DNA of 12,264 nt from positions 1-12,264 of the IMG/VR virus record IMGVR_UViG_2537561977_000026; one strand, given 5' to 3'. The notes below the pieces were generated by a model that saw nothing but the letters and a program-made list of their open reading frames with translations, did not search any database and had not been told where the DNA came from. The position numbers and the translations under genes are program-made. This document shows, in pieces, positions 1-12,264 of this stretch; the stretch's first letter is position 1; each line of letters opens with the position of its first letter. Source of the DNA: a virus (Duplodnaviria > Heunggongvirae > Uroviricota > Caudoviricetes).

Positions 1-1233
1 ATGGCACGAAAAACCACCCCACTAACTATTACGGAGATCAAAAACGCACGACCAGGGGAAAAGGAATATACCCTGCAGGATGGCGGAGGATTATTTCTTC
101 TGGTGAAGCCCTCCGGATCAAAAATCTGGCGTTTTACGTACTACCGCCCGGCAGATAAAAACGGACTATTATCAGCCTTGGATCGCTAAATGATGTTTCC
201 CTGTCTGAGGCCAGAGAGCGACGGAATGAATACAGGTCACTCATAGCAAAGGGAACTGACCCACAGGACTACGAACGCCGGAAACGTGAAGCAGAGAGCA
301 GGAAAAAGGGCAACACGTTCGAAAAAGTTGCCTCGGACTGGTACGAGATGAAAAAAGGCCAGAATCTGGCTTACAACACGATTAAGGATATCTGGCGATC
401 CCTGGAAAAATACGTATTCCCGTACATCGGAAACACGCCAATAGATACCCTCACCGCTCGCCGCTTTGTTGAGATACTCACACCCATTAAAGCACGCGGC
501 AACCTGGAAACTCTGAAACGCGTTTTACAACGCATCAATGAAGTGATGGATTTTGCTGCCAACAGTGGGCTGATTGACATCAACACCGCCGCGAACGTCC
601 GCAAGGCATTCCCTTCCCCCACTAAAAAGCATATGCCAACCATCCGACCGGAACAGCTACCGCAGCTAATGCACGATTTATCGGTCGCCAGCATAGAACG
701 GCAAACCAGATTGCTAATCGAGTGGCAACTGCTGACCGTAGCACGCCCAGCCGAAGCAGCCGCCGCACGCTGGGAAGAAATAGATCTCGATGCCGAAACA
801 TGGACGATTCCTGCCGGACGCATGAAGATGCGCCGTGACCATGTGATCCCTCTTTGCGGTCAGGCGATAGCTGTACTGGAAACAATGAAGCCAATCAGCG
901 CACACAGGGAACATGTTTTTCCCAGCCTTAAAAATCCAATGCTGCCAATGAGCAGCCAGACCGCTAACGCTGCATTGCGCCGGATGGGATACGCTGGTGT
1001 CTCACGGATTACGCGCCATATTCAGTACAGCAGCGAACGAGGAAGGATTCGAGCCGGACGTAATCGAGGCCGCACTCGCACACGTGGACACGAACGAGGT
1101 AAGGCGAGCATATAACCGAAGTAACTACCTGGAAAAGCGCGTGGTGCTTATGCGCTGGTGGGGTGAATTTGTGGAGGCTGCCGCAACCGGAGTGACCATA
1201 GCCAGCGGTAAAAGGGGTATCCGTGCCGTGTAA
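1..1233 (+). pseudogene. int: P4-family tyrosine integrase, reading frame broken twice
   Basis: Three collinear ORF pieces (1..189 frame 1; ~162..1115 frame 3; 997..1233 frame 1) together reproduce a full P4/CP4-57-type integrase: N-terminal MARKT.PLT..EIKNA arm-binding region, core IRPEQLPQLM / WQLLTVARPAEA / WTIPAGRMKMRRDHVIPL, C-terminal SHGLR...VIEAALAHVDTNEVRRAYNRSNYLEKR. Frame switches map to an A5 run (156-160) and a G3 run (986-988). Confidence 0.85.
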
Positions 1234-1331
1234 CTGTACAAAAAGCCAGTACAACCAGTGAAAACCATGCCAAACCATCGTATAATTGCCACAAATTTAA
1301 CGACAAGGCCGGAGTATATGAAAATTCTATT

Positions 1332-1562
1332 ATGCAAAATACCACCGCCTACGGCGAAGGCCTGCAACTGGCCTTAATGGCAAATCGTGAATTCTGGTCA
1401 ACATACGATCCAGAAGACAAAACGACAGCCCCCACAAAACACGAGGTAGTCAGTTTTTTGCGCTCGCGTGGTGCATCGAAAAATCTGGCTGAAAGCATCG
1501 ACAAGGTGCTGAGGCCCACCAGCCTTAAATGCGGTGGGCGACCTAAGAAGTGGAAACGGTAA
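1332..1562 (+). CDS. hypothetical small protein (76 aa) between int and alpA
   Basis: ORF in the int-alpA gap, followed by a hairpin terminator. No recognisable family; the nearest SD-like GGAG is 17 nt upstream, so weak. A 19-codon ORF from ATG 1318 has a better SD. Confidence 0.3.
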   Translation: MQNTTAYGEGLQLALMANREFWSTYDPEDKTTAPTKHEVVSFLRSRGASKNLAESIDKVLRPTSLKCGGRPKKWKR

Positions 1563-1569
1563 TCACAAT

Positions 1570-1597
1570 AGCGGCCCTTTGCGGTCGCTATTTTTTT
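1570..1597 (+). terminator. rho-independent terminator
   Basis: Hairpin AGCGGCC-CTTTGC-GGTCGCT (7 bp stem including one G-U) followed by A then T7 (1591-1597). Confidence 0.55.
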
Positions 1598-1632
1598 GCA
1601 GAAAGAAAAGCGTAATCAATGAGATAAAAAAC

Positions 1633-1667
1633 AGTGGGTACCGTTTTAAAACGGTGGGTACTGTTTT
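1633..1667. promoter_or_regulatory. candidate operator upstream of alpA: perfect 16-bp palindrome inside a 15-bp direct repeat pair
   Basis: ACCGTTTTAAAACGGT (1640-1655) is a perfect palindrome. AGTGGGTACCGTTTT (1633-1647) and GGTGGGTACTGTTTT (1653-1667) are near-identical direct repeats. Lies ~70 bp upstream of the alpA start. Confidence 0.4.
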
Positions 1668-1732
1668 TCCCGCCCTGCCCTGTTTTACCGTATTTATCAC
1701 CGGAATACGCCGGATTAACGAGGTAAAACATA

Positions 1733-1938
1733 GTGGAAACAATCAGAAAAATACTTACCCGTCAGGAAGTAAAAATATTCTGCGCATCAAGGCAGACAGT
1801 TCGCTACAGGACATGATCAACGCCGGAAAATTCCCGAAAGGCTTCAAAATCGGTCTGCGCCGTGTTGGCTGGTATGAAGATGAGGTGCTGGCCTGGCTGA
1901 AAGAGCGCGAGGAAGAAGCGCGCGGAACGGCTGCTTAA
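1733..1938 (+). pseudogene. alpA: AlpA-family phage transcriptional regulator (helix-turn-helix), apparent -1 frameshift in an A5 run
   Basis: GTG 1733 preceded by GAGG gives VETIRKILTRQEVK in frame 2. Frame 1 downstream gives ILRIKADSSLQDMINAGKFPKGFKIGLRRVGWYEDEVLAWLKER, matching the AlpA pattern (EV...SRSTIY..I..G.FP.P.KLG.R.VGW.E.EV..WL). Restoring A6 at 1771-1775 joins them into one ~69-aa protein. Confidence 0.6.
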
Positions 1939-1964
1939 CGGGTATCACAGATATGACAAACACG

Positions 1965-1997
1965 AAAAAAGCGGCCCCGATATGGAGCCGCCTTTCT
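1965..1997. terminator. possible bidirectional terminator between convergent alpA and minus-strand genes
   Basis: A6 (1965-1970), GCGGC (1971-1975), 11-nt loop, GCCGC (1987-1991), then CTTTCT. Short stem, so weak. Confidence 0.3.
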
Positions 1998-2086
1998 GAA
2001 CAATTAACCAGCTGCGCCTTATGTGTATATGATCCCAAACATAAGCACGGGGATGATAGCCGCTATCAGGCTGGTGGGCAATGCAA

Positions 2087-2275
2087 TCAGTCTGGTTCAG
2101 TTCGTTGCCATACCTGCAATGAGCGCTTTTCCCTGTACTCTTTAAGGAATTGCTCAAGGGCAAAAGCACATGGCGCGAATCTTTCTGATTCATGCTCTAT
2201 CTTTCTGCGCCGTCTTTTCCGTGCCGGTGATAATGTTTTGGTCAATTCTTTATCGGTCATTGTGTTGTCCTGCAT
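2087..2275 (-). CDS. hypothetical small basic protein (62 aa)
   Basis: Minus-strand ORF 43 nt downstream of the RHH regulator gene; K/R-rich (ARKRRRRK). No strong SD and no family recognised. Confidence 0.25.
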   Translation of the reverse strand: MQDNTMTDKELTKTLSPARKRRRRKIEHESERFAPCAFALEQFLKEYREKRSLQVWQRTEPD

Positions 2276-2317
2276 AGCAATGCGCCGTAATACCTTACAC
2301 CACGGCGCTGATGGTGA

Positions 2318-2623
2318 TTACTCTGGTTCTTTGGTCTTGCGACGCTGGAGTTCTTCGCGTGCAACGGTGACAAGCTGCCCGATTTCTTCCGCTGCTTTGA
2401 TGCCGATTTGTTCGACCTTAGCCAGGGCATCCAGTGACGACACAAGGGGATTTTCTCCGCTGCCTTCTGCTTGGCGGCGAGCTATTTCTCCGCGCATGGC
2501 GGTTACGATAAATCCGGCATTGCTTTCGCCGTCCAGCTTAACGGATTCCATCCCTTGCATAACATCTAGTGGGACTCTGACAGTTGTCAGTTGTGATTTT
2601 GCGTTTTTGTTAGCCGTTGCCAT
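2318..2623 (-). CDS. putative ribbon-helix-helix (Arc/CopG-like) DNA-binding regulator
   Basis: The only convincing minus-strand gene. AGGAG lies 8 nt before the ATG. The TTVRVPLDVMQGMESVKLDGESNAGFIVTAMRGEIARR segment resembles the Arc repressor beta-strand plus helix (compare FNLRWPREVLDLVRKVAEENGRSVNSEIYQRVMESF). Divergent from the primase operon. Confidence 0.55.
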   Translation of the reverse strand: MATANKNAKSQLTTVRVPLDVMQGMESVKLDGESNAGFIVTAMRGEIARRQAEGSGENPLVSSLDALAKVEQIGIKAAEEIGQLVTVAREELQRRKTKEPE

Positions 2624-2815
2624 TTCTGAAACTCCTAATCATCGGTGTGTTTCAGTATACACAAAAAAGAAATACAAAAAGCCTTGACGTGTGTTTCATG
2701 CGCTCATAACATGAAGCACACCGAAAGGATTGTTGAAATACAAAGAGCAACGCCCCGCAGTGCCGGAAACACATACGGGGCGTCTAACCACAAACACTAT
2801 AGAGAGGAAAAATTT
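2624..2815. promoter_or_regulatory. divergent control region between the RHH regulator and the Icd-like/primase operon
   Basis: Candidate sigma70 promoter: -35 TTGACG (2684-2689), 17-bp spacer, -10 TAACAT (2707-2712). GTGTGTTTCA direct repeat at 2645-2654 and 2689-2698. GC-rich hairpin ACGCCCCG (2750-2757) / CGGGGCGT (2776-2783) in the leader. Confidence 0.4.
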
Positions 2816-3013
2816 ATGGTTGCTGTAAATCATATACCACACCTTGTACACACACAAACGGCCTTTGTGTGGCGTTTTCTGGCCCTGAGTGCCGGAGAAT
2901 CTCAAATCATCCACGTAACCGCCTGGACGGAACGCGAAGCGCGTAGCCGTTGCCCGTACGGTTGTGTTGCTGTGTTCGCCGCCCGTATTCGCCAGGAGGT
3001 GAGTCATGCATAA
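2816..3013 (+). CDS. Icd-like small protein (Icd/Ash-family pattern)
   Basis: ATG 2816 preceded by AGAGGAAAA. MVAVNHIPHLVHTQTAFVWRFLALSAGESQIIHVTAWTEREARSRCPYGCVAVFAARIRQEVSHA fits the small Icd-like proteins usually found just upstream of P4-type primase genes. The track ORF 2645..3013 carries an N-terminal extension that is probably not translated. Confidence 0.5.
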   Translation: MVAVNHIPHLVHTQTAFVWRFLALSAGESQIIHVTAWTEREARSRCPYGCVAVFAARIRQEVSHA

Positions 3014-3233
3014 AATACCTTTTGATGTTCTTATTCATTCTGAGAATGCATTAATCCGCGCAAAGGAAATGGAGGCATTATTACTTAAGTTAATGGAAGT
3101 GCCGGAAAATGGCGATGAATCATATCCCATGATGTTTTCTGCCGTGCACACATTATTAACGCCAGTAATTAACGAATTAAATACGGTGATGGCAATTCAC
3201 GAGAATAATAAAGCGCATCACACCGGAGAATAA
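3006..3233 (+). CDS. hypothetical protein (75 aa)
   Basis: Strong SD AGGAGGTG; start overlaps the upstream stop (ATGCATAA), suggesting translational coupling within the operon. Confidence 0.5.
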   Translation: MHKIPFDVLIHSENALIRAKEMEALLLKLMEVPENGDESYPMMFSAVHTLLTPVINELNTVMAIHENNKAHHTGE

Positions 3234-3238
3234 AAACC

Positions 3239-3526
3239 ATGAAAAAGAAAAATTCTGGCTTTACTGTCAGCGGCCCCGCTCGGCCTGAAATCCGCCCCGG
3301 CGATATTTTCAAAGATAACTACGGCGGCACGATAACGATAAAAGACGTGGAAGAACGGCGCATCACCTACCGCCGTGAAGGCTACGACTATGACTGCGTG
3401 ATGCCTGTTTATCAGTTCCGGCGTGATTTTAAGCTGGTGGGCCATCGTAAAGCCGTAAATCAGAAACGTGCAGCAAGCTATATCCGCAAAATCCGTGAAA
3501 TGCTGGTCGCAGGGGGTAAAAAATGA
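3239..3526 (+). CDS. hypothetical protein (95 aa)
   Basis: SD GGAGAA; its stop overlaps the primase start (ATGA). Basic C-terminus. No family recognised. Confidence 0.5.
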   Translation: MKKKNSGFTVSGPARPEIRPGDIFKDNYGGTITIKDVEERRITYRREGYDYDCVMPVYQFRRDFKLVGHRKAVNQKRAASYIRKIREMLVAGGKK

Positions 3527-4258
3527 AACTGGCACCGAACGTAAAACAGCAGTCACGCGGCATAAAACACAAAGAAACAGAAGTCATTATTTTTGCGGGT
3601 AGTGATGCCTGGTCACACGCAAAACAATGGCAGGAACATGACGCGCGTATGGCCGGAGATAATGAGCCTCCTGTGTGGCTTGGGGAGCAGCAGTTATCCG
3701 AACTGGATAAGCTGCAAATTGTGCCGGAAGGCAGAAAATCCGTGCGCATATTCAAGGCCGGATATCTTGCGCCAGTAATGATAAAGGCGATTGGTCAGAA
3801 GCTGGCGGCGGCAGGCGTACAGGATGCAAATTTTTATCCTGAGGGTATGCACTGCCAGGAGGTGCAGAACTGGCGCGAATATCTGGCCCGTGAACGCCAG
3901 AATCTTTCTGATGGTCTGGTTATTGAGCTTCCGGTAAAGCAAAAAATGCAGCTTTCGCAGATGGCGGACAGTGAGCGCGCGCAGCTGCTTGCCGATCGCT
4001 TTGATGGCGTTTGTGTGCATCCAGAAAGTGAAATCGTTCACGTATGGCGCGGCGGGGTATGGTGTCCGGTCAGCACAATGGAACTTAGCCGCGAAATGGT
4101 GGCGATCTATTCAGAGCACAGGGCCACTTTCAGCAAGCGCGTAATCAATAACGCCGTGGAAGCATTAAAAGTTATTGCCCAGCCAATGGGGGAGCCGTCC
4201 GGCGATTTGTTGCCGTTCGCCAATGGTGCGCTTGACCTGAAAACGGGGGAATTTTCCC

Positions 4259-5552
4259 CTGAGGAATCCCCAGAAAACAAGACAGGCATAGTGAGATGTG
4301 ATCTAATTGATTGTGCTAACAATTTCAAGGAGATCACCACTATGCCTGCACGTTCATTATGCCAAAATTTCCTTAACAACATACTGGCCCCTTTGCATCT
4401 TTACCGTCAAAAATCACTGATTGACGCAACTAATGCTGTAATAAATGGCGCTTCCCTCACACTTACCAGTATCGGGCGTCATTTAACCGGTACGGCATCA
4501 GTTAAAAACAAAATAAAGCGGGTGGATCGACTGTTGGGGAATCGACATTTGCAAAATGAGGTTTCCACCATTTTTCAGCGAATTACCCAAAAGATTACGC
4601 GGGGAATGTCTCGTGTTGTGATACTCATTGACTGGAGTGCTTATCATGCCTCTCGTTTTCAGCTTTTGCGGGCAAGCCTGGCATGTGACGGGCGTTCTTT
4701 ACCGTTGATGAGTTGTGTCGTTCCATCATCACAGACAGCGAATGCAGATGTACATGAGCGTTTTCTGGAATCGCTTGCTGAGTGCTTTTCCCCCGGGACT
4801 GATGTCATTGTTATTACAGATGCCGGTTTTCAGGGGCGATGGTTCCAACAGCTCCGCTCCCGTGGCTGGACCTATATTTGCCGGGTACTGGGCAATCATT
4901 ATTACAATGTTGGTAATGGCTGGGAAAAGGTGTCGGACTCAGGCACAAAAGCATCAACGACAGCAATTTATTTAGGTGAAGGCCTGCTGGGTCGAGATAA
5001 AAATGCACAACATGAAGGGCATTTTTATCTTTATAAAAGTAAGCCTAAAGGTCGTAGATTTAAACGCTCGAAGGAAAGAGCAACCAGACCATCGGTGACG
5101 GCTAAAGCTCGTACTGCCGGGAAATCACCATGGTTTATTTTCACAAACAGTACTGAGTTCTCGCCAAAACAGGTAATGAAATTATACAGCCGTAGAATGC
5201 AAATTGAGCAAAATTTCAGGGATGAAAAAAATCCTCGCTGGGGATTTGGACTACGGTTTGGTGCCAGTCATTCATCCGGGCGGGTCACGGTATTGAGTCT
5301 GATCGCAACATTAGCCAGTATCATTATGTGGTTAAGCGGTTTCAGCCTGGAAAACAAAGGGATACATCATAAATATCAGGCAAATACAGTGAAGCACAGG
5401 CGAGTCATCTCGTTATTAAAACTGGCGGAGAATGTGATTCGACATTCTCCACTCATACTAAACACACTGTCACTTGACGCAGGGCTGAAAGTTCTACAGC
5501 AACGGTATACCAATATGATAATGGTTTACTAAATTTTCTGGGGATCCCTCAG
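4259..5552 (+). mobile_element. IS4-family (IS10-like) insertion sequence, ~1.29 kb
   Basis: Terminal inverted repeats CTGAGGAATCCCCAGAAAAC (4259-4278) and complement of ATTTTCTGGGGATCCCTCAG (5533-5552), 18/20 match. Flanked by direct repeat GGAATTTTCCC (4248-4258 and 5553-5563), consistent with a target-site duplication. Confidence 0.85.
4342..5532 (+). CDS. IS4-family (IS10-like) DDE transposase
   Basis: 396 aa, collinear with IS10 transposase: IKRVDRLLGNRHL, LIDWS, ITDAGF, YSRRMQIEQNFRD, QANTVKHRRV. In the track it appears fused in frame to the primase N-fragment (ORF 3523..5532). Confidence 0.85.
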   Translation: MPARSLCQNFLNNILAPLHLYRQKSLIDATNAVINGASLTLTSIGRHLTGTASVKNKIKRVDRLLGNRHLQNEVSTIFQRITQKITRGMSRVVILIDWSAYHASRFQLLRASLACDGRSLPLMSCVVPSSQTANADVHERFLESLAECFSPGTDVIVITDAGFQGRWFQQLRSRGWTYICRVLGNHYYNVGNGWEKVSDSGTKASTTAIYLGEGLLGRDKNAQHEGHFYLYKSKPKGRRFKRSKERATRPSVTAKARTAGKSPWFIFTNSTEFSPKQVMKLYSRRMQIEQNFRDEKNPRWGFGLRFGASHSSGRVTVLSLIATLASIIMWLSGFSLENKGIHHKYQANTVKHRRVISLLKLAENVIRHSPLILNTLSLDAGLKVLQQRYTNMIMVY

Positions 5553-5974
5553 GGAATTTTCCCCGCACACGCCGGAGAACTGGATCACCACGCACAACGG
5601 CATTGAGTACACGGCACCAGCACCAGGGGAGAACATCCGCGACAACGCTCCAAACTTTCATAAATGGCTTGATCACGCTGCCGGAAAAGATCCGGGCAAG
5701 ATGATGCGTATATGCGCCGCGCTATACATGATTATGGCGAACCGGTACGACTGGCAGATGTTTATTGAGGCCACCGGAGACGGCGGGAGCGGCAAGAGCA
5801 CTTTCACGCACATAGCCAGCCTTCTGGCAGGGAAACAGAACACAGTAAGGCAGTATGACTTTCCGTGAGACAGATGCTGGCCAACGTGGGATATTTAACG
5901 CGGGTTAACATCGTTGTCAGAGCCGCATGGGTGAGCTGTTGCTACACCCCGGTATTTCCACCACGGAGGCCAGC

Positions 5975-7102
5975 ATGAACAACAATAACACATTGTACGT
6001 CGGGTTAGATGTTCACAAAGAATCGATTACTGTCGCTTATGCTATCAATTCAGAACCTGTTGAACTGATGGGTAAAATTGGCACATCACCTACTGATATT
6101 CAGAATCTTTGTAAACGTCTCAGGTCAAAGTCATCGCAGGTCAGTATCGTTTATGAAGCGGGGCCCTGTGGTTATGGACTTTATCGTCGGCTGGTGAAAT
6201 CCGGTTTTGACTGCATGGTCTGCGCCCCCTCACTTATCCCGAAAAAACCGGGGGAGCGGGTTAAAACCGATCGCCGTGATGCCATCAGACTTGTGCGTTC
6301 ACTGCGTGCAGGAGATCTTTCTGCTGTCTACGTACCCGGCATTGAAGATGAGGCATTCCGGGATTTGGCCCGGGCATGGGCATCTGCCCGCGATGATTTA
6401 CGGCATGCAAGGCAACGTCTGAAATCGTTTCTTCTGGTTCATGGGGTCCATTATGTCGGGCGAGCAGATTGGGGCCCTGCACACCGACGCTGGCTCAGCA
6501 AATACTCATTCGAAAGTCCCTGGCGACAATTAGCTTTTGACGAACACCGTCGTACAATAGAAGACCGGCAGGCACAATGTGAACGGCTGGAATCCGCCCT
6601 GAAGGAGGCCGTTACCGAATGGAGGCTGTATCCGGTAGTAGAGGCGCTGCAAGCCATGCGAGGGATTCAGTTTATTACTGCGGTTGGATTAATTTCTGAA
6701 CTGGGTGATCTGACCCGTTTTGAACATCCACGACAACTGATGTCATGGTTTGGTATCACGCCATCAGAATATTCATCGGGTGGAAGCAGACATCAGGGCA
6801 GCATTACCAAAGCCGGAAACAGCTATGCCAGAAAGCTATTGGTCGAGGCAGCGTGGAGTTACCGTCATCCGGCACGCATCAGTCCGGCAATACAAAAAAG
6901 GCAGGAAAATTTACCCCGCCCCGTCATTGACAGAGCATGGGATGCTCAACTCAGGCTTTGTAAGAGGTATCGAAAACTTCAGGCCAAAGGAAAGAATGTC
7001 AATATTACAATTGTTGCTGTTGCACGTGAGCTGGCGGGTTTTATCTGGGATATGGGCCGAATAGCAATGTCTGTCGCACAACAACCACAATGTCACAAAT
7101 AA
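5975..7102 (+). CDS. IS110-family (DEDD) transposase
   Basis: GGAGG 5 nt before ATG 5975. N-terminal LYVGLDVHKESITVA and C-terminal LQAMRGIQFITAVGLISELGDLTRFEHPRQLMSWFGITPSEYSSGGSRHQGSITKAGNSYARKLLVEAAW are IS110/IS116/IS902-type motifs. The track ORF starts at 5927 but 5975 has the SD. Confidence 0.85.
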   Translation: MNNNNTLYVGLDVHKESITVAYAINSEPVELMGKIGTSPTDIQNLCKRLRSKSSQVSIVYEAGPCGYGLYRRLVKSGFDCMVCAPSLIPKKPGERVKTDRRDAIRLVRSLRAGDLSAVYVPGIEDEAFRDLARAWASARDDLRHARQRLKSFLLVHGVHYVGRADWGPAHRRWLSKYSFESPWRQLAFDEHRRTIEDRQAQCERLESALKEAVTEWRLYPVVEALQAMRGIQFITAVGLISELGDLTRFEHPRQLMSWFGITPSEYSSGGSRHQGSITKAGNSYARKLLVEAAWSYRHPARISPAIQKRQENLPRPVIDRAWDAQLRLCKRYRKLQAKGKNVNITIVAVARELAGFIWDMGRIAMSVAQQPQCHK

Positions 7103-7118
7103 AAAATGAGAATAACCA

Positions 7119-7307
7119 GTTCCCTGAAGGCGACGTAGCCCGGTACAAGAGTAACCCACGTTAGCGCTTGGCGACGGCGGAACAAAGCTGATTCGCGACG
7201 TAAGAAAGTGGCAGGCTCATATGACGGACCTCTGTAATGCGGTATCCAACCCGCGAATATCAGCGTGATTCACCGTCGGATTTACTGCTACGTCGCCCTC
7301 AGGGAAT
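7119..7307 (+). ncRNA. candidate bridge/seek RNA of the IS110-family element
   Basis: 19-nt inverted repeat TCCCTGAAGGCGACGTAGC (7121-7139) / GCTACGTCGCCCTCAGGGA (7287-7305), 18/19 pairs, extendable by 2 bp, enclosing ~147 nt. Internal ATATCAGCG (7257-7265) is identical to the IS-end/flank junction at 7363-7371; AGCGCT (7163-7168) matches the right flank. Confidence 0.3.
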
Positions 7308-8116
7308 TAAACCTAAAAAGAAAATCGTCAAAATTAGAGATTCCGGTTTGACACGGAAAGTCATATCAGCGCTGAGATGACATCGCTTGATGATGCTGGT
7401 GGGCGTGCACAGGTTGTCGGGAGTCGTCTTATCGTCCTGGCAGACCAGCCGAAATATACAGGCGAAGGAACGGGCATCAAGAAAATCACGGGCGGCGACC
7501 CCGTGGAAATTAACCCGAAATATGAAAAGCGTTTTACGGCGGTAATCAGGGCGGTGGTGCTGGCAACCAATAACAATCCGATGATATTCACCGAACGGGC
7601 CGGAGGCGTGGCACGTCGTCGCGTGATTTTCCGTTTCGACAATATCGTCAACGAGGCCGAAAAAGACAGGGAACTACCGGAAAAGATTGCGGCTGAAATC
7701 CCCGTCATTATCCGCCGATTACTGGCGAACTTTGCAGACCCTGAAAAGGCGCGGGCTTTACTACTGGAACAGCGTGACGGTGATGAAGCACTGGCGATAA
7801 AGCAGCAAACGGATCCGGTTATTGAGTTTTGCCAGTTCCTGAATTTTCTGGAGGAAGCACGTGGCCTGATGATGGGTGGCGGTGGCGATTCCGTGAAGTA
7901 CACGACCAGAAACAGCCTTTACCGCGTCTATCTGGCGTTTATGGCATACGCAGGCAGAACCAAACCACTAAACGTAAATGACTTTGGCAAGGCCATGAAG
8001 CCAGCCGCAAAAGTTTACGGACATGAATATATTACGCGAAAAATTAATGGAGTGACGCAGACTAACGCAATAACAACCGACGATTGCGACGCGTTTTTAT
8101 AATTTTTGGCAATTGC

Positions 8117-8333
8117 TGTCTACCTGATTACATAAAAGTTGTTTTAATTCAGTGTATTAATTTAGGTAGACAGCTTTTTTTACTGTCTACAAGCTGTCTA
8201 CCTTGTCTACCTGTTTTTGTAGCCAGTCGGAGGGATGGGTAGACATCAGGTAGACAGAGATTTTTTACTGTCTACCACCATAAAACCCGCGTCATTACTA
8301 GCCTGAGCATCCACCAGGTAGATAAGGTAGACA
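8117..8333. repeat. iteron array, candidate replication origin (P4 ori/crr analogue)
   Basis: Octamer TGTCTACC at 8117-8124, 8195-8202, 8204-8211, 8269-8276. Complement GGTAGACA at 8165-8172, 8238-8245, 8249-8256, 8326-8333. Variants at 8184-8191 and 8317-8324. Two palindromic units GTAGACAG-N9/10-CTGTCTAC (8166-8190, 8250-8275). AT-rich spacers. Directly downstream of the primase gene. Confidence 0.6.
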
Positions 8334-8382
8334 AGGTGGGGGTATCTCCAAAACTTTTTAAACGAGGGGGGTAAAAACAAAA

Positions 8383-8640
8383 ATGCACACATCAGGAAAA
8401 CTTAACAATCAGAAGAAGCAACATAACCGCGCCATTGACCTTACAGAGCACTGGCTGAGGGTGGCGATAAAAATCATCGACCGCAACGCGGGAGAAGGAT
8501 ACGCGAAAGCACATCCTGAACTGATAAGCGCATTCATGACCACGGCGGCAGCAAACTTTGCCACGCTGACAGAGCGGGAGATTGCCGAAGCGGAACAGGT
8601 GACAACCATCAACGTTAAAACCGGAGAGCAGACAGCATGA
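8383..8640 (+). CDS. hypothetical protein (85 aa)
   Basis: SD GAGGGGGG before ATG 8383; its stop overlaps the next start (ATGA at 8637). No family recognised. Confidence 0.5.
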   Translation: MHTSGKLNNQKKQHNRAIDLTEHWLRVAIKIIDRNAGEGYAKAHPELISAFMTTAAANFATLTEREIAEAEQVTTINVKTGEQTA

Positions 8641-9020
8641 CAGCACAGATAGCGGCTTACGGGCGGCTGGTGGCTGACCCGCAGTTAAAGACCACCAGCA
8701 AAGGGACACAAATGGCGATGGCGAGTATGGCGGTTCCCCTGCCGTGCAGCCAGGCAGATGACGGAACGGCGACGATGTGGTTATCCGTCCTGGCGTTTGG
8801 CAGACAGGCCGACGCACTGGCAAAGCACCACAAAGGCGAACTGGTGAGCGTGGCGGGTAACATGCAGGTAAGCCAGTGGACAGACCAGAACGGCGAAACG
8901 CGGCAGGGCTGGCAGGTCATCGCAGACAGCGTAATCAGTGCGCGAACGGCGCGACCGGGCGGCAGCCGACGCAAAACCACAGGCACACAGGGTAATCAGC
9001 CACCAGCGGGAGTACGGTGA
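8637..9020 (+). CDS. SSB-like OB-fold protein lacking the acidic C-terminal tail
   Basis: Collinear with E. coli SSB: IAAYGRLVADPQLK vs ILVGNLGQDPEVRY; TMWLSVLAFGRQADALAKHHKGELVSVAGNMQVSQWTDQNGETR vs [45 protein letters not shown]. Ends ...GNQPPAGVR with no DDDIPF-type tail. Confidence 0.6.
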   Translation: MTAQIAAYGRLVADPQLKTTSKGTQMAMASMAVPLPCSQADDGTATMWLSVLAFGRQADALAKHHKGELVSVAGNMQVSQWTDQNGETRQGWQVIADSVISARTARPGGSRRKTTGTQGNQPPAGVR

Positions 9021-9319
9021 TGATATTCCGTTCTGAGGGGGTGAGGATGGTACATGACCGCATAGCGGAGGAACTCGAAGCGAAAGGCTTTTACCGGAGG
9101 GCGTCGGCGCGATGGGGTGAAGTCATGCAGCTGGTGGAGACAGACAAAGAACGGCATCAGGTTACGATGCGACGGCTGGAATGTTCCAGGAAGGCACAGA
9201 GGCCACCGGAGCCGCCGGATAACTTAGGAGACCTGAAAAAAGCAGTAGATCGCACTTATGCCGAAATGGGTATGGGTGGTGCTGGTGATGAAATATGGCG
9301 CAATTACCAGGACAGCTAA
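9017..9319 (+). CDS. PerC/ANR-like small transcriptional regulator
   Basis: EELEAKGFYRRASARWGEVMQLVETDKERHQVTMRRLEC follows the PerC/ANR pattern (LE..G.WRRA..W......ETDEER......R..C). The start may instead be ATG 9046, which has a GAGGGGGTGAGG SD. Confidence 0.45.
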   Translation: MMIFRSEGVRMVHDRIAEELEAKGFYRRASARWGEVMQLVETDKERHQVTMRRLECSRKAQRPPEPPDNLGDLKKAVDRTYAEMGMGGAGDEIWRNYQDS

Positions 9320-9325
9320 TCACAC

Positions 9326-9348
9326 AGCCGGAGGAATCCGGCTTTTTT
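9326..9348 (+). terminator. rho-independent terminator
   Basis: AGCCGGA-GGAA-TCCGGCT hairpin followed by T6. Confidence 0.6.
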
Positions 9349-9354
9349 ACGCCT

Positions 9355-9396
9355 AAAAAAGCCCGATAAGGCCAGAGGAGTCTTATCGGGCTTTTT
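9355..9396. terminator. rho-independent terminator, probably bidirectional
   Basis: A6, then perfect 10-bp stem GCCCGATAAG (9361-9370) / CTTATCGGGC (9382-9391) with an 11-nt loop, then T5. Confidence 0.6.
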
Positions 9397-9476
9397 CATA
9401 TGAGGCTTTTATCTAACAGCATGGTGACTACTGTTGCCGGAAATCATTTCATAATTTGCAACACAAATCAATATTA

Positions 9477-9504
9477 TTGCACAAAATGCAATCATGATTA
9501 TAAT
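9477..9504 (+). promoter_or_regulatory. near-consensus sigma70 promoter for the head-gene operon
   Basis: -35 TTGCAC (9477-9482), 16-bp spacer, -10 TATAAT (9499-9504), in an AT-rich region with repeated TTGCA/TGCAA motifs. ~55 bp upstream of orf68. Confidence 0.5.
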
Positions 9505-9560
9505 CATAACTGGATGTTCATACAGTTATGATTTTTTAAGTCAAAGAGGAATTTCTGACT

Positions 9561-9767
9561 ATGGCAGAAGAGAAAAAAGGTGGGGTTACAGTCTACATAA
9601 GCCCCGACATTGTGGAGGCACTCAAGGAACGCCACCAGCAGAACGTAAAAGCGAGCATTGCGGCAGGACTTGATCCGCTGGCAATGGTTGAGCCGTCAAC
9701 AGGCTGGCAGGTGCGCGCCTATTTACGTGCGGCGTTGGGCATGAATCAGACTCATGGGGGTGAATAA
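9561..9767 (+). CDS. hypothetical protein (68 aa), first gene of head operon
   Basis: SD AGAGGA before ATG 9561; stop overlaps the capsid gene start (TAATG). Confidence 0.5.
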   Translation: MAEEKKGGVTVYISPDIVEALKERHQQNVKASIAAGLDPLAMVEPSTGWQVRAYLRAALGMNQTHGGE

Positions 9768-10821
9768 TGGCAGGTAAAGCAACGGCTCTTAACACTAACC
9801 AGCTTTTCGCGTACCTGAATCGTGGTGATATTGCTGAATTTAAATTCAGTCCGCTGTTTACCACGCTGTTTTTCCCGAACGTGGCGACATTCAGCACCCA
9901 GAACATCATGCTGGATACCCTGGACATTGAAGAAGTCACCATGTCAGCGTTTTGTTCGCCTATGGTGGGTAGTCAGGTCCAGCGCGATAAAGGGTACGAA
10001 ACCAGCACGATTAAACCTGGCTACATGAAGCCAAAGCACGAAATCGATCCAACAAAAACCATTATGCGCATGGCTGGAGAAGATCCGGCACAGCTTAACG
10101 ACCCTACATACCGCCGTATGCGTCTGATTACTGGCAACATGCGCCGCCAGGTCAACGCCATTAAAGCGCGCGTCGAATGGCTGGCGGTGAATGCGGTCAC
10201 GACCGGAAAAACATCATTGAGGGCGAAGGCATAGAACGCTATGAAATTGACTGGAAGATACCGGAAAGCAATATCATAGTGCAGGTCAAAGGCTGTAAAT
10301 GGTCTGAACAGGACAAAGAAACACACGATCCAATCTATGACATCGAGCTTTATGCGGATCAGGGCAGTTGCCCCGCCAACGTCATGATTATGGGCGCTGA
10401 TGTATGGCGCACGTTACGCAGCTTTAAAAAATTCCGCGAGCTGTACGATCTTTCCCGTGGTTCAGAATCCGCCGCCGAACTGGCGTGTAAAAACCTGGGC
10501 GAAGTGGTGAGCTTTAAAGGCTATCTGGGCGATATTGCCCTTATCGTCTATTCCGGCAAATACGCCGACAGCGACGGCACCGAAAAATATTTCCTTGAGC
10601 CTGATTTGCTTGTCCTGGGCAACACCAACAATAAAGGGCTGGTGGCCTATGGTGCGATTATGGATCAGGACGCAGTAAGAACGGGCGCAACGCAAAACAT
10701 GTTTTACCCGAAAAACTGGATTGAGGACGGCGATCCGGCGATTGAGTACGTGCAGACGCACAGCGCACCGCAGCCGGTTCCGGCAGATATTCGCAAATTT
10801 GTTACCGTCAAAATTGGTTAA
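9767..10821 (+). pseudogene. lambda gpE-type major capsid protein, -1 frameshift in an A5 run
   Basis: ORFs 9767..10234 (frame 2) and 10177..10821 (frame 1) together are collinear with lambda E: FKFSPLF..LFF, IKPGYMKPKHEIDP, DPTYRRMRLITGNMRRQVNAIKARVEWLAVNAVTTGK, then DPIYDIELYA...SRGSESAAELACKNLGEVVSFKGYLGDIALIVYSGKY...LVLGNTNNKGLVAYGAIMDQDA...FYPKNWIEDGDPAIEY. Restoring A6 at 10206-10210 gives one ~352-aa ORF. Confidence 0.85.
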
Positions 10822-10832
10822 CGGGGGATTCT

Positions 10833-11168
10833 ATGGACACTCCATACATTGAGTTATTTGCAGGCAGTCAGCAGGTCGCCACGACGCTGGTACATTTTGC
10901 CGCTGATGCTGGCGTTATTCAGGAATTTACCCCGCTGATGCTGGCGGACAATGGCGAGTTTAAGCCGTGGGATGGTAAGGAATCTGGCAAGGCTGTTTAT
11001 CTGACCTCGTACCCTGTGGACACGTCAGAGCAGAAATCAGCACAGTGTTACAAGACGGGGATATTCAATATTGCTGCCGTTAATTGGCCTGAGAGCGTCG
11101 ACACCGACGCGAAAAAATGCGCCGCCTTTGCGGGTTCTGGCGTATCCGTTCAGCCGCTGGCCCGATAA
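10833..11168 (+). CDS. lambda gpD-like head decoration protein
   Basis: SD GGGGGA. TPLMLADNGEFKPWDG...CYKTGIFNIAAVNWPESVDTDAKKCAAFAGSGVSV matches lambda D (TPLMLDTSSRKLVAWDG...[36 protein letters not shown]). Confidence 0.7.
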   Translation: MDTPYIELFAGSQQVATTLVHFAADAGVIQEFTPLMLADNGEFKPWDGKESGKAVYLTSYPVDTSEQKSAQCYKTGIFNIAAVNWPESVDTDAKKCAAFAGSGVSVQPLAR

Positions 11169-11180
11169 GCAGGGGGAACG

Positions 11181-11552
11181 ATGGCAACGAATGAAAGCAT
11201 CATGACGCTACCGCTGGCGAGTAAATTTAAAGCCGAAGCGCGGGCAATGGCTGACAGAGGGTTATCAACCTACGAGGCCATATATCAACTTAACAAACTG
11301 GAAGAGCAGGACAAGCCGCGCGCTGATGCGATTATGGCGCTTGATGAATCTGGCGACTATCAGCCGCTGTTACGTGCAATGGCAAACGTGCCTTGTATCG
11401 ATGTTGGTACGGCCAAAAGCATTCTTAGCATGACCATAGAGCAGGAACGCCAGAAGGTTGCACCAGAGCTTACCGCAGCCTTTGAAAACTTTATGGACAT
11501 GCACAGCCCGAAAGCCGTATCAGCTGGCATGGCATACGATAGCAGAAACTAG
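11181..11552 (+). CDS. hypothetical protein (123 aa), head-operon associated
   Basis: Strong SD AGGGGGAA; tightly spaced after the D-like gene; followed by a terminator. No family recognised. Confidence 0.55.
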   Translation: MATNESIMTLPLASKFKAEARAMADRGLSTYEAIYQLNKLEEQDKPRADAIMALDESGDYQPLLRAMANVPCIDVGTAKSILSMTIEQERQKVAPELTAAFENFMDMHSPKAVSAGMAYDSRN

Positions 11553-11600
11553 GGCGATGACGGCGACATCGATCGCATACTGAAAACCATCTGAGACAAG

Positions 11601-11622
11601 GCCGGAGAAATCCGGCTTTTTT
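11601..11622 (+). terminator. rho-independent terminator, same module as 9326-9348
   Basis: GCCGGA-GAAA-TCCGGC followed by T6; 24/25 identical to the terminator at 9326-9350. Confidence 0.6.
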
Positions 11623-11704
11623 ACGGGGCCTTTCCGGCATATGGACCCGTTACGGGGCGGGAGCGGCGCAGAATTTCACTATTTATGAAAATTTTTCGGA
11701 AACC

Positions 11705-11802
11705 ATGTCCGGTTTTTCTTGGAGTTAACTCTTTGAAAAATATAAAAATTCACTTTCTGTGAACCGGACGTGCGCAAAAATTGAACACTCAAACCGGACA
11801 TA
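11705..11802. promoter_or_regulatory. candidate regulated promoter with three ACCGGAC boxes
   Basis: -35 TTGGAG (11719-11724), 16-bp spacer, -10 TATAAA (11741-11746). Box AAACCGGACATG in reverse at 11705-11716 and forward at 11761-11772 (GAACCGGACGTG) and 11791-11802 (AAACCGGACATA). Confidence 0.35.
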
Positions 11803-11964
11803 TATGCCGCGTTTCATAAAGTTGTTCGCAAGATGCATGTTTAAAACGCATGAGGGGAGATTTTTTGGCGAGGTGAACAGTGGCTACTCAGACTGAAGTT
11901 GCCAGGCATTTGAGTCTGACCGATCGCCAGCTTCGCAGATTACAGAAATTGTTCCCCCATCACT

Positions 11965-12264
11965 ATGGAGACCATAACCATGACCGACGCCGAACTACTG
12001 AAAGTAATCCGCCGTATTACCGGAATCAGTCAGGCAACAGGCAAACAGGTGGCCACGCAGCCGGACAGCGTGACAGCCGAAAACTATGCGCGTGTTGTTG
12101 CTGAGGTTATGCGCCGTGACGGTATTGAGCTTAACGGCGTGGATATGCGCAACATACGAACCAGAGTCCTTGAGTTGCTGGCATACCGTCGCCGTTCTCA
12201 ACAACGGAGGGAGAGCATGAAAAATACTTACCAGTGGAAGAAGCCGGAACGGTTGCGGCGGTAG
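11965..12264 (+). CDS. hypothetical protein (99 aa; alternative start ATG 11980)
   Basis: ORF reaching the window end with a stop at 12262-12264. ATG 11980 has GGAGA 8 nt upstream. Function unknown; could begin a packaging module continuing beyond the window. Confidence 0.45.
   Translation: METITMTDAELLKVIRRITGISQATGKQVATQPDSVTAENYARVVAEVMRRDGIELNGVDMRNIRTRVLELLAYRRRSQQRRESMKNTYQWKKPERLRR

Follow-up and report, generated by a model that had tools for sequence, protein, structure and literature searches.

In the immI region of phage P22, the RNA sar lies over the ribosome-binding site of ant. The region carries the ribbon-helix-helix (RHH) repressors Mnt and Arc, divergent promoters, and sar as an antisense RNA over ant (PMC2629481). 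Here, we describe a locus that resembles this arrangement, positions 2318-2815 of a 12,264-nucleotide stretch of viral DNA (IMG/VR record IMGVR_UViG_2537561977_000026, positions 1 to 12,264; hereafter, the window). The window represents a phage-inducible chromosomal island (PICI) of the EcCICFT073 type that has decayed. In the region, a small regulator gene of the YlcI/YnfO_N family is divergent from an operon that begins with an Icd-like gene and includes a primase. From sequence comparison, we give a probability of roughly 0.7 to the reading that the region is the control switch of the island, in which an RHH-type repressor would act on phased boxes together with an antisense RNA.

By analogy, P22 immI is the closest described counterpart of this module. 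The shared features would be small RHH-type repressors, back-to-back divergent promoters, autoregulation, and a short cis-antisense RNA (here a candidate) that starts inside the regulated unit and covers the translation start of the controlled gene. However, the YlcI/YnfO_N protein has no significant sequence match to Arc or Mnt, and the candidate RNA has no match in Rfam. P22 immI has two regulators and single 21-bp operators, whereas the module has one regulator and five boxes about 22 bp apart. The controlled gene in P22 is an antirepressor gene, whereas the module would control a satellite replication operon led by the Icd-like gene. The immunity of P4 (CI RNA, seqA/seqC) and the immI of P1 (c4 RNA - icd - ant) are also comparable, as an early operon with an Icd-type gene in first position is under RNA control exerted at the leader or translation start. 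However, these RNAs arise by processing of the sense transcript and recognise repeated target sites in trans, whereas the candidate of the module would be a true cis-antisense RNA.

Stl proteins are larger helix-turn-helix proteins and do not belong to the RHH class. The Stl/Rpr repressors of Staphylococcus aureus pathogenicity islands and Gram-positive PICIs, to which an earlier note on this DNA had pointed for comparison, share with the module a repressor gene divergent from the excision/replication operon of the satellite and a promoter region that is the decision point. The likeness does not extend to the orientation relative to int. The rpr gene of Gram-positive PICIs is oriented with int (PMC6092414), whereas the int (plus strand) and alpA genes of the window are oriented with the operon and opposite to the regulator. 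Additionally, Stl-type repressors are de-repressed by a helper-phage protein, whereas the known inducer route of Gram-negative PICIs is the activator AlpA. The founding study of Gram-negative PICIs identified AlpA as an activator and left undecided whether a repressor exists (PMC6092414). In a later survey, YlcI/YnfO appears solely among the accessory genes of capsid-forming PICIs (PMC13612085), and other searchable later papers make no mention of it. The searchable literature yielded neither a functional description of the YlcI/YnfO family nor a paper naming this module, which seems to be a familiar immunity-type switch in kind and apparently undescribed in Gram-negative PICIs.

The regulator open reading frame (ORF; 2318-2623, minus strand, 101 aa), with a Shine-Dalgarno AGGAG at 2632-2636 on the same strand, 8 nt ahead of its ATG, faces the Icd-like ORF over a 192-bp gap (2624-2815). 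The earlier note had placed one GTGTGTTTCA box against the -35 of a promoter in this gap and a second copy 44 bp upstream, and both were recovered as exact matches at 2689-2698 and 2645-2654. A third copy, at 2712-2721, is inverted and has one mismatch. In the whole window, four GTGTGTTTCA matches were found at no more than one mismatch, where 0.91 would be expected; four were reached in 2 of 200 shuffles. The 8-nt core TGTGTTTC/GAAACACA, searched on either strand with up to one mismatch, resulted in six sites within the gap (2646, 2669, 2690, 2713, 2735, and 2766), the first five of which are 21-23 bp apart. When the gap was shuffled 1000 times with dinucleotide counts preserved, no 8-mer ever reached six sites; the maximum was five, reached in 0.6% of shuffles. 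The two boxes first noticed are correct as far as they go but incomplete, as they belong to a set of four to six phased boxes distributed over two promoters.

The rightward promoter, P_icd (2684-2712, plus strand, TTGACG-17-TAACAT), was identified by a scan tool and is predicted to drive the Icd-like/DUF4222/primase operon. The leftward regulator promoter, P_rhh, is represented by a putative -10 (TATACT, 2654-2659, minus strand) and was missed by the tool because its -35 is poor. Box O1 (GTGTGTTTCA, 2645-2654, plus strand) adjoins the P_rhh -10 and covers the predicted P_rhh start, whereas box O2 (GAAATACA, 2669-2676, minus strand), an inverted core with one mismatch, lies upstream of the same -10. 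Box O3 (GTGTGTTTCA, 2689-2698, plus strand) begins on the final base of the P_icd -35. Box O4 (GTGTGCTTCA, 2712-2721, minus strand), an inverted repeat, comes directly after the P_icd -10 and spans the predicted P_icd start near 2719. A weaker box, O5 (GAAATACA, 2735-2742, minus strand), is located another 22-bp step away. The sixth box-like 8-mer (2766-2773), in the loop of a hairpin (SL2), is not conserved in other loci. We also considered the boxes as a partition site or centromere and rejected this role, as a ParA-type partner is absent.

For the comparison between loci, a species-level genome collection supplied 12 loci and assemblies with chosen protein variants another 13; annotated E. 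coli records were also used. Together they comprise 20 or more related loci from nine genera (Escherichia, Xenorhabdus, Photorhabdus, Enterobacter, Klebsiella, Edwardsiella, Erwinia, Serratia, and Phytobacter). In all loci fetched, the regulator gene stands opposite the Icd-like gene across a gap of about 190-200 bp. Homologous elements had been named as the place where the boxes might fail, and the boxes are present there at matching positions. Four are found at fixed offsets from the regulator ATG, about +23 (O1, fixed in all loci), +46 (O2, likewise fixed), +68, and +91. A fifth often occurs near +113 to +118, as does the class-matched fifth site of L007, L008, L011, L012, and L024. The promoters are conserved as well. 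Every locus has a TATAAT-like minus-strand hexamer (TATACT, TATAAT, TATATT, etc.) between +28 and +33, mostly at +30/+31; the TTGAC of the P_icd -35 at +61 to +65, mostly +62, and its TAnnnT -10 are conserved in all loci and read TTGACG-18-TATAGT in EcCICFT073. Within one box class shared by E. coli, Enterobacter, Klebsiella, and Edwardsiella, the boxes are 97% identical against 73% for the other gap positions, and for the box class of the window the values across genera are 93% and 62%.

All boxes of one locus change jointly with the N-terminal strand of the regulator. The strand KSQLTTVRVP occurs with box TGTGTTTC, KSQSLTARIP with TGTAAGAC, KSKQISIRIP with TGTGATTC, and KSQQ(L/I)NARFP with TGG(T/G)ATTC, whereas four K-N strands occur with GTGTGTATTTA-like boxes. 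In EcCICFT073, the strand KSQALKARVP accompanies box GTGGGCCACAC, with two copies 23 bp apart around the -10; the boxes of this island can also be written GTGGGCCACACCT, both copies in direct orientation. The sequence of O2 co-varies with the protein class, as in GTCTTACA, GAATCACA, and GAATACCA. The other genes of the locus behave differently. One Icd N-terminus (MAGTQHTPRLAHTQ...) was found with two box types and, when close variants are counted, with four; orf62, the gene downstream of the regulator, is 98% identical between two box classes; and the window and L001, an E. coli PICI, have the same boxes and unrelated int/alpA regions. This is strong comparative evidence that the box sequence tracks the N-terminal strand of the regulator and not Icd, orf62, or AlpA.

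The same comparison bears on whether another factor, namely AlpA, the Icd-like protein, or a host or helper protein, binds the boxes, or whether the regulator is an activator or an architectural factor. AlpA was shown experimentally to activate EcCICFT073 genes (PMC6092414), some Icd-like families are labelled 'transcriptional repressor' in PHROGs, and a P_rhh without a -35 could need activation. However, co-variation of the boxes was seen solely with the regulator N-terminus, a single Icd type accompanies four box types, and loci with unrelated alpA genes have identical boxes. Furthermore, boxes over the spacer, -10, and start of a near-consensus promoter have the geometry of repression. We regard both alternatives as improbable. 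The conservation and co-variation of the boxes agree with the earlier proposal of a repressor-operator switch for the satellite replication genes, and the comparative evidence is strong for a switch that is autoregulated and has exchangeable specificities.

The O55:H7 PICI (L029, 3270-3443, minus strand; NC_017656.1, about 1440619-1440792) contains an unannotated 57-aa Arc-like ORF (MSTPLEKRSPPYQMRLPEDFRAQLEEAAKADGDTS...) in the slot of the regulator, where RefSeq annotates an overlapping plus-strand pseudogene instead. This ORF has two palindromic GGTAATTACC boxes 30 bp apart, and the island retains orf62, the hairpin, and icd. Because a different Arc-like protein is found there together with its own boxes, the slot can be described, on comparative grounds, as an exchangeable repressor-operator cassette. 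The cassette of the window (1965-2996, terminator-orf62-regulator-gap-icd) is 98% identical to L001, whereas the flanks are unrelated or about 82% identical and int/alpA is unrelated, which is consistent with such a cassette. From this mosaic similarity, we interpret the difference as cassette exchange whose breakpoints coincide with the terminator and the icd end. When EcCICFT073 (L028) is aligned with the cassette of the window, only orf62 and the flanks match, and the regulator N-terminus and the boxes are replaced.

The regulator was assigned to NCBIfam NF041551 (YlcI/YnfO_N) at 63.2 bits, where the cutoff is 30 (residues 9-50, E = 1.6e-17), it also matches phrog_6522, and RefSeq gives its homologues the same YlcI/YnfO label. 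In an alignment of 29 homologues, the N-terminal third (residues 2-32) is variable and the remainder is conserved. In the AlphaFold model (mean predicted local distance difference test score, pLDDT, 80.6), the N-terminus is extended, two helices span 19-28 and 35-54, and residues 59-98 form a long helix. RHH proteins are recognized by a G-x-S/T/N turn between the helices and by alternating base-contacting residues of the strand, which in Arc are Q9, N11, and R13. The D-G-E-S of the regulator (residues 31-34), in which E33 is invariant, fits the turn. The hhalign comparison with Arc (E = 0.0046, probability 7.6%) aligned TTVRVP with FNLRWP and placed L12, T14, and R16 against Q9, N11, and R13. 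S10, R16, and P18 are invariant, whereas positions 12 and 14 vary. We consider it probable that residues ~10-54 adopt the RHH fold, although the scores are weak. Foldseek against the PDB was essentially empty, with Arc only at E = 8.6, and PF07704, matched by 23 of the 29 family members (best E = 0.0011), stayed below the gathering score, above which Pfam gave nothing for the regulator. Single-sequence and profile searches of the PDB retrieved no RHH protein, and curated RHH sequence families gave sub-threshold matches only. Thus, of an RHH protein divergent from the Icd-like/primase operon, the divergence is confirmed and the fold is plausible on weak scores.

The C-terminal half of the regulator could serve as an oligomerisation or partner-binding surface; residues 45-86 are modelled by AlphaFold as one long helix. 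This conserved half (LVSSLDALAKVEQIGIKAAEEI, window ~2366-2491) also gave a weak profile match to the Hef/XPF helix-hairpin-helix domain (E = 0.0043). TraM of F-like plasmids and other RHH proteins have a C-terminal oligomerisation helix and bind phased arrays of sites. However, TraM shows no sequence relationship to the regulator and acts in the conjugation relaxosome rather than in satellite gene control, and the EcCICFT073 variant is without the helix. That variant (L028, 6474-6653; NC_004431.1, 1380473-1380652) is a 59-aa short form that seems to have lost the C-terminal helix by internal deletion; since it has none, the helix is not expected to be essential to the basic function. No homologue of the regulator was found by tblastn against 50,697 phage records. 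A plus-strand ORF antisense to the regulator (1953-2687) was rejected as a gene, as its start is encoded by a terminator hairpin and its C-terminal two thirds are a low-complexity antisense reading; RefSeq labels the equivalent ORF a pseudogene, a further ground for rejection.

The gap also contains the GC-rich hairpin SL2 (2749-2784), which had been described as a leader hairpin. It is present and in the leader by position, but its pairing fits the minus strand. Its GC core ACGCCCCG/CGGGGCGT extends to 2749-2784. On the minus strand, the stem is followed by a T-rich tail, e.g., GCTCTTTGTATTT or GCTATTTTTGC, whereas the plus strand has no T-run after the hairpin. RNAalifold gave 14 pairs and -23.2 kcal/mol for the minus strand and 8 pairs and -9.5 kcal/mol for the plus strand. 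Counted on the minus strand, 96.6% of the cells of the helix are paired, with 32 G·U cells and seven pairs showing compensatory double changes; counted on the plus strand, 84.5% are paired and there are zero wobble pairs. A second stem-loop, SL1 (2786-2821, minus strand), comprises ten pairs, in which G·U cells number 22 when read on the minus strand and 1 when read on the plus strand. In SL1, the complement of the icd start-codon region pairs with a conserved TGGTT motif, and the anti-Shine-Dalgarno lies in the loop; this pairing would explain the invariant plus-strand TCTAACCA (2783-2790). Taking both stems together in 21 loci, we counted 59 G·U cells for the minus strand and 3 for the plus strand, an asymmetry partly measured on a structure that was itself predicted from the minus strand. 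SL2 is most likely the terminator of a cis-antisense RNA and, as such, a minus-strand structure.

A putative promoter for this RNA, P_as (2829-2857, minus strand), lies within the first icd codons and consists of a -35 TTGTGT (2857->2852), a 17-nt spacer, and a -10 TATGAT (2834->2829). In 22 of 22 loci, a TAnnnT hexamer precedes the complement of the icd ATG, by 10 nt (type A) or 4 nt (type B), and all type B loci have a TGn extended -10. In both types, the pairing of SL1 begins 0-5 nt after the predicted P_as start. The resulting candidate RNA of about 80 nt (2738-2822, minus strand, predicted ends) comprises SL1, SL2, and a U-rich tail and is complementary to the 5' untranslated region (UTR), Shine-Dalgarno, and start codon of the icd-like gene. 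In CFT073, its counterpart would lie on the minus strand at about 1380771-1380861 (NC_004431.1). Its minimum free energy is -33.6 kcal/mol (z = -4.95), and minus-strand folds gave z of about -4.8 to -7.0 against -2.29 for the plus-strand leader. Rfam at the gathering score found no family in the whole window, and at E <= 10 the interval 2550-3100 gave only chance-level matches (symR, R1162 antisense, and microRNAs). The best of these, symR (RF01809), reached 24.7 bits against a gathering score of 61 (E = 0.019) and shares only strand, span, and the two-hairpin shape. The C4 and isrK families (P4 CI/P1 c4) did not match in this interval even at E <= 10. We lean, by a modest degree, towards a cis-antisense RNA of ~80 nt that covers the icd ribosome-binding site.

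Alternatively, the hairpin and its flanks might have a function in the plus-strand mRNA, whether as 5'-UTR stabiliser, attenuator, or translational control of the icd-primase operon, with no antisense RNA. The hairpin is within the predicted 5' UTR of the P_icd transcript, and the GC core as well as an SL1-like stem hiding the AUG can form on the plus strand. This explanation has to accommodate the lower pairing of SL2 on the plus strand, without G·U pairs, the excess of minus-strand G·U cells over both stems, the stronger fold z of the minus strand (-4.95 to -6.98 against -2.29), and the missing plus-strand T-run. Additionally, the P_as -10 moves along with SL1 in the two locus types. We consider the plus-strand explanation unlikely, even with the poor consensus of P_as on its side. 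The earlier note had set a protein repressor here against the RNA-based immunity of P4. As the hairpin is likely the terminator of an antisense RNA, the contrast between protein and RNA control is probably false, and both layers seem present.

We propose that the YlcI/YnfO_N protein would form an RHH dimer, with further assembly through its long C-terminal helix. Dimers would bind the phased array of four to five 8-10-bp boxes at steps of about 22-23 bp, roughly two helical turns; such phasing would place all sites on one face of the DNA. Occupancy of O3 and O4, over the spacer, -10, and start of P_icd, would exclude RNA polymerase and keep the Icd-like/DUF4222/primase operon off. Since boxes lie over both back-to-back promoters, autoregulation is also implied, and with O1 and O2 flanking the P_rhh -10, the regulator would repress its own gene. 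The N-terminal strand would determine specificity, probably through positions 12, 14, and 16 (aligned with Arc Q9/N11/R13), and the strand and boxes, swapped as one cassette, would generate distinct specificity ('immunity') types among satellites. The long C-terminal helix may link neighbouring dimers, as in TraM. P_as, in the early icd codons, would drive the ~80-nt antisense RNA, which would end at SL2 and mask the ribosome-binding site and start codon of icd. The comparison shows the anatomy of the region and how it is conserved, the joint change of boxes and strand, and the asymmetry of the RNA structure between the two DNA strands. In this scheme, we infer DNA binding, repression, expression of the RNA, and the lifting of the block by a helper phage or AlpA.

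Several points speak against the combined switch of repressor and antisense RNA. A convincing -35 is missing from P_rhh. The coding region of the regulator N-terminus physically adjoins the boxes, and linkage could yield part of the co-variation; however, because four separate sites change in concert, linkage alone is insufficient, and a DNA-binding factor with its specificity in the adjacent strand fits better. For the RNA, the U-tract of SL2 is interrupted and the terminator would therefore be weak, the strand counts share the partial dependence on a minus-strand prediction noted with them, and P_as is below the threshold of the promoter scan, weak by consensus, with a -10 that overlaps conserved icd codons. 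Furthermore, EcCICFT073 is induced when AlpA alone is over-expressed (PMC6092414), and AlpA would therefore have to be able to override any repressor. Read-through from alpA as a route of de-repression is doubtful, as a hairpin terminator separates alpA from the cassette.

More tentatively, and with less than even odds, the module may be the missing repressor/immunity system of many Gram-negative PICIs, including EcCICFT073. It would then be a double lock of a swappable RHH-type repressor and a cis-antisense RNA, the specificity types would be immunity groups of co-resident satellites, and the helper would defeat the lock via AlpA or a phage protein acting on the conserved C-terminal half of the repressor. 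If protein and antisense RNA do silence the replication operon, satellite quiescence and the hurdle faced by the helper become directly testable in EcCICFT073. Presence of the module in this prototype, which is without a recognised repressor, makes it worth an experimental test. A function would also be assigned to an uncharacterised family that occurs in at least one in five complete E. coli genomes. The about ten natural strand/operator pairs would form a data set on RHH recognition rules, and the matched pairs would be a possible source of orthogonal repressors and operators.

The regulator is probably not the only minus-strand gene, contrary to the earlier note. The conserved orf62 (2087-2275, minus strand), probably a second gene, follows 42 nt downstream, and both are followed by a strong intrinsic terminator on that strand (1965-1997, read 1997->1965, with a 14-bp stem and T6), which closes the regulator-orf62 unit and marks the left edge of the exchangeable cassette. 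From this arrangement, the two genes are probably co-transcribed as a two-gene unit. The product of orf62 is a small basic protein of 62 aa with a KRRRRK motif (phrog_21027, 1.6e-15). It is 71-100% identical in E. coli loci of other operator classes and 44% in L014, where it lies farther downstream, and it is retained in EcCICFT073 and L029 despite their differing regulators. In the non-E. coli loci fetched, tblastn did not detect orf62 downstream of the regulator, which argues against a type II toxin-antitoxin pair of RHH antitoxin and small toxin (orf62) whose boxes autoregulate the pair only. Such a pair is hardly credible for further reasons. EcCICFT073 keeps orf62 with a 59-aa regulator that has no toxin-binding C-terminal helix, orf62 has no toxin family match in Pfam, NCBIfam, or PADLOC, and two of the four best boxes are on the operon promoter rather than on the regulator promoter. 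PADLOC found no defence-system match for the regulator, orf62, the Icd-like gene, or the next two ORFs.

The setting had been taken for a P4-like satellite. From the gene order and DNA identity it shares with EcCICFT073, we conclude that the element is an EcCICFT073-type PICI and not P4-like. In a BLAST comparison with E. coli CFT073, identity to EcCICFT073 is 89-95% over 3208-4259, 5552-5849, and 7368-11688. The annotated prototype (NC_004431.1, 1377930-1388654) has a matching gene order, and its RefSeq annotation places a 'YlcI/YnfO family protein' divergent from a 'host cell division inhibitor Icd-like protein'. The window shows the Gram-negative PICI order int - alpA - regulatory zone - primase - single-stranded DNA-binding protein (SSB) - PerC - capsid/decoration, in which the regulatory zone is a minus-strand unit followed by the plus-strand operon.

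Decay is evident in several genes. The integrase (1-1233) is broken by frameshifts into three frames, and alpA (about 1734-1938) has a frameshift near 1810. The primase (D5_N/DUF5906, D5_N match, 3523-8102, plus strand) is interrupted by an IS4-type insertion with DDE_Tnp_1 (about 4260-5551) and by a second, IS110-type, insertion (about 5850-7367). To its right are SSB, PerC, a lambda-E-type capsid gene (9767-10821, frameshifted near 10177-10234), and a head-decoration gene. Within this decaying island, the regulator gene, the gap, and the Icd-like gene are still intact. The Icd-like gene (2816-3013, plus strand; NF033153, 63 bits) is the first of the regulated operon and is followed on the same strand by an ORF at 3006-3233, the DUF4222 gene (3239-3526; PF13973), and the primase. 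Two families that match the Icd-like protein, phrog_1743 and phrog_6196, are called 'transcriptional repressor' by PHROGs, and NCBIfam describes it as cell-division-inhibitor-like. Between int and alpA, the interval 1332-1592 contains a 76-aa ORF and a good plus-strand terminator (1567-1592); the ORF has no family match and is absent at the corresponding position in L001 and EcCICFT073. Finally, 1154 of 5426 complete E. coli genomes match parts of the region 2318-2815.

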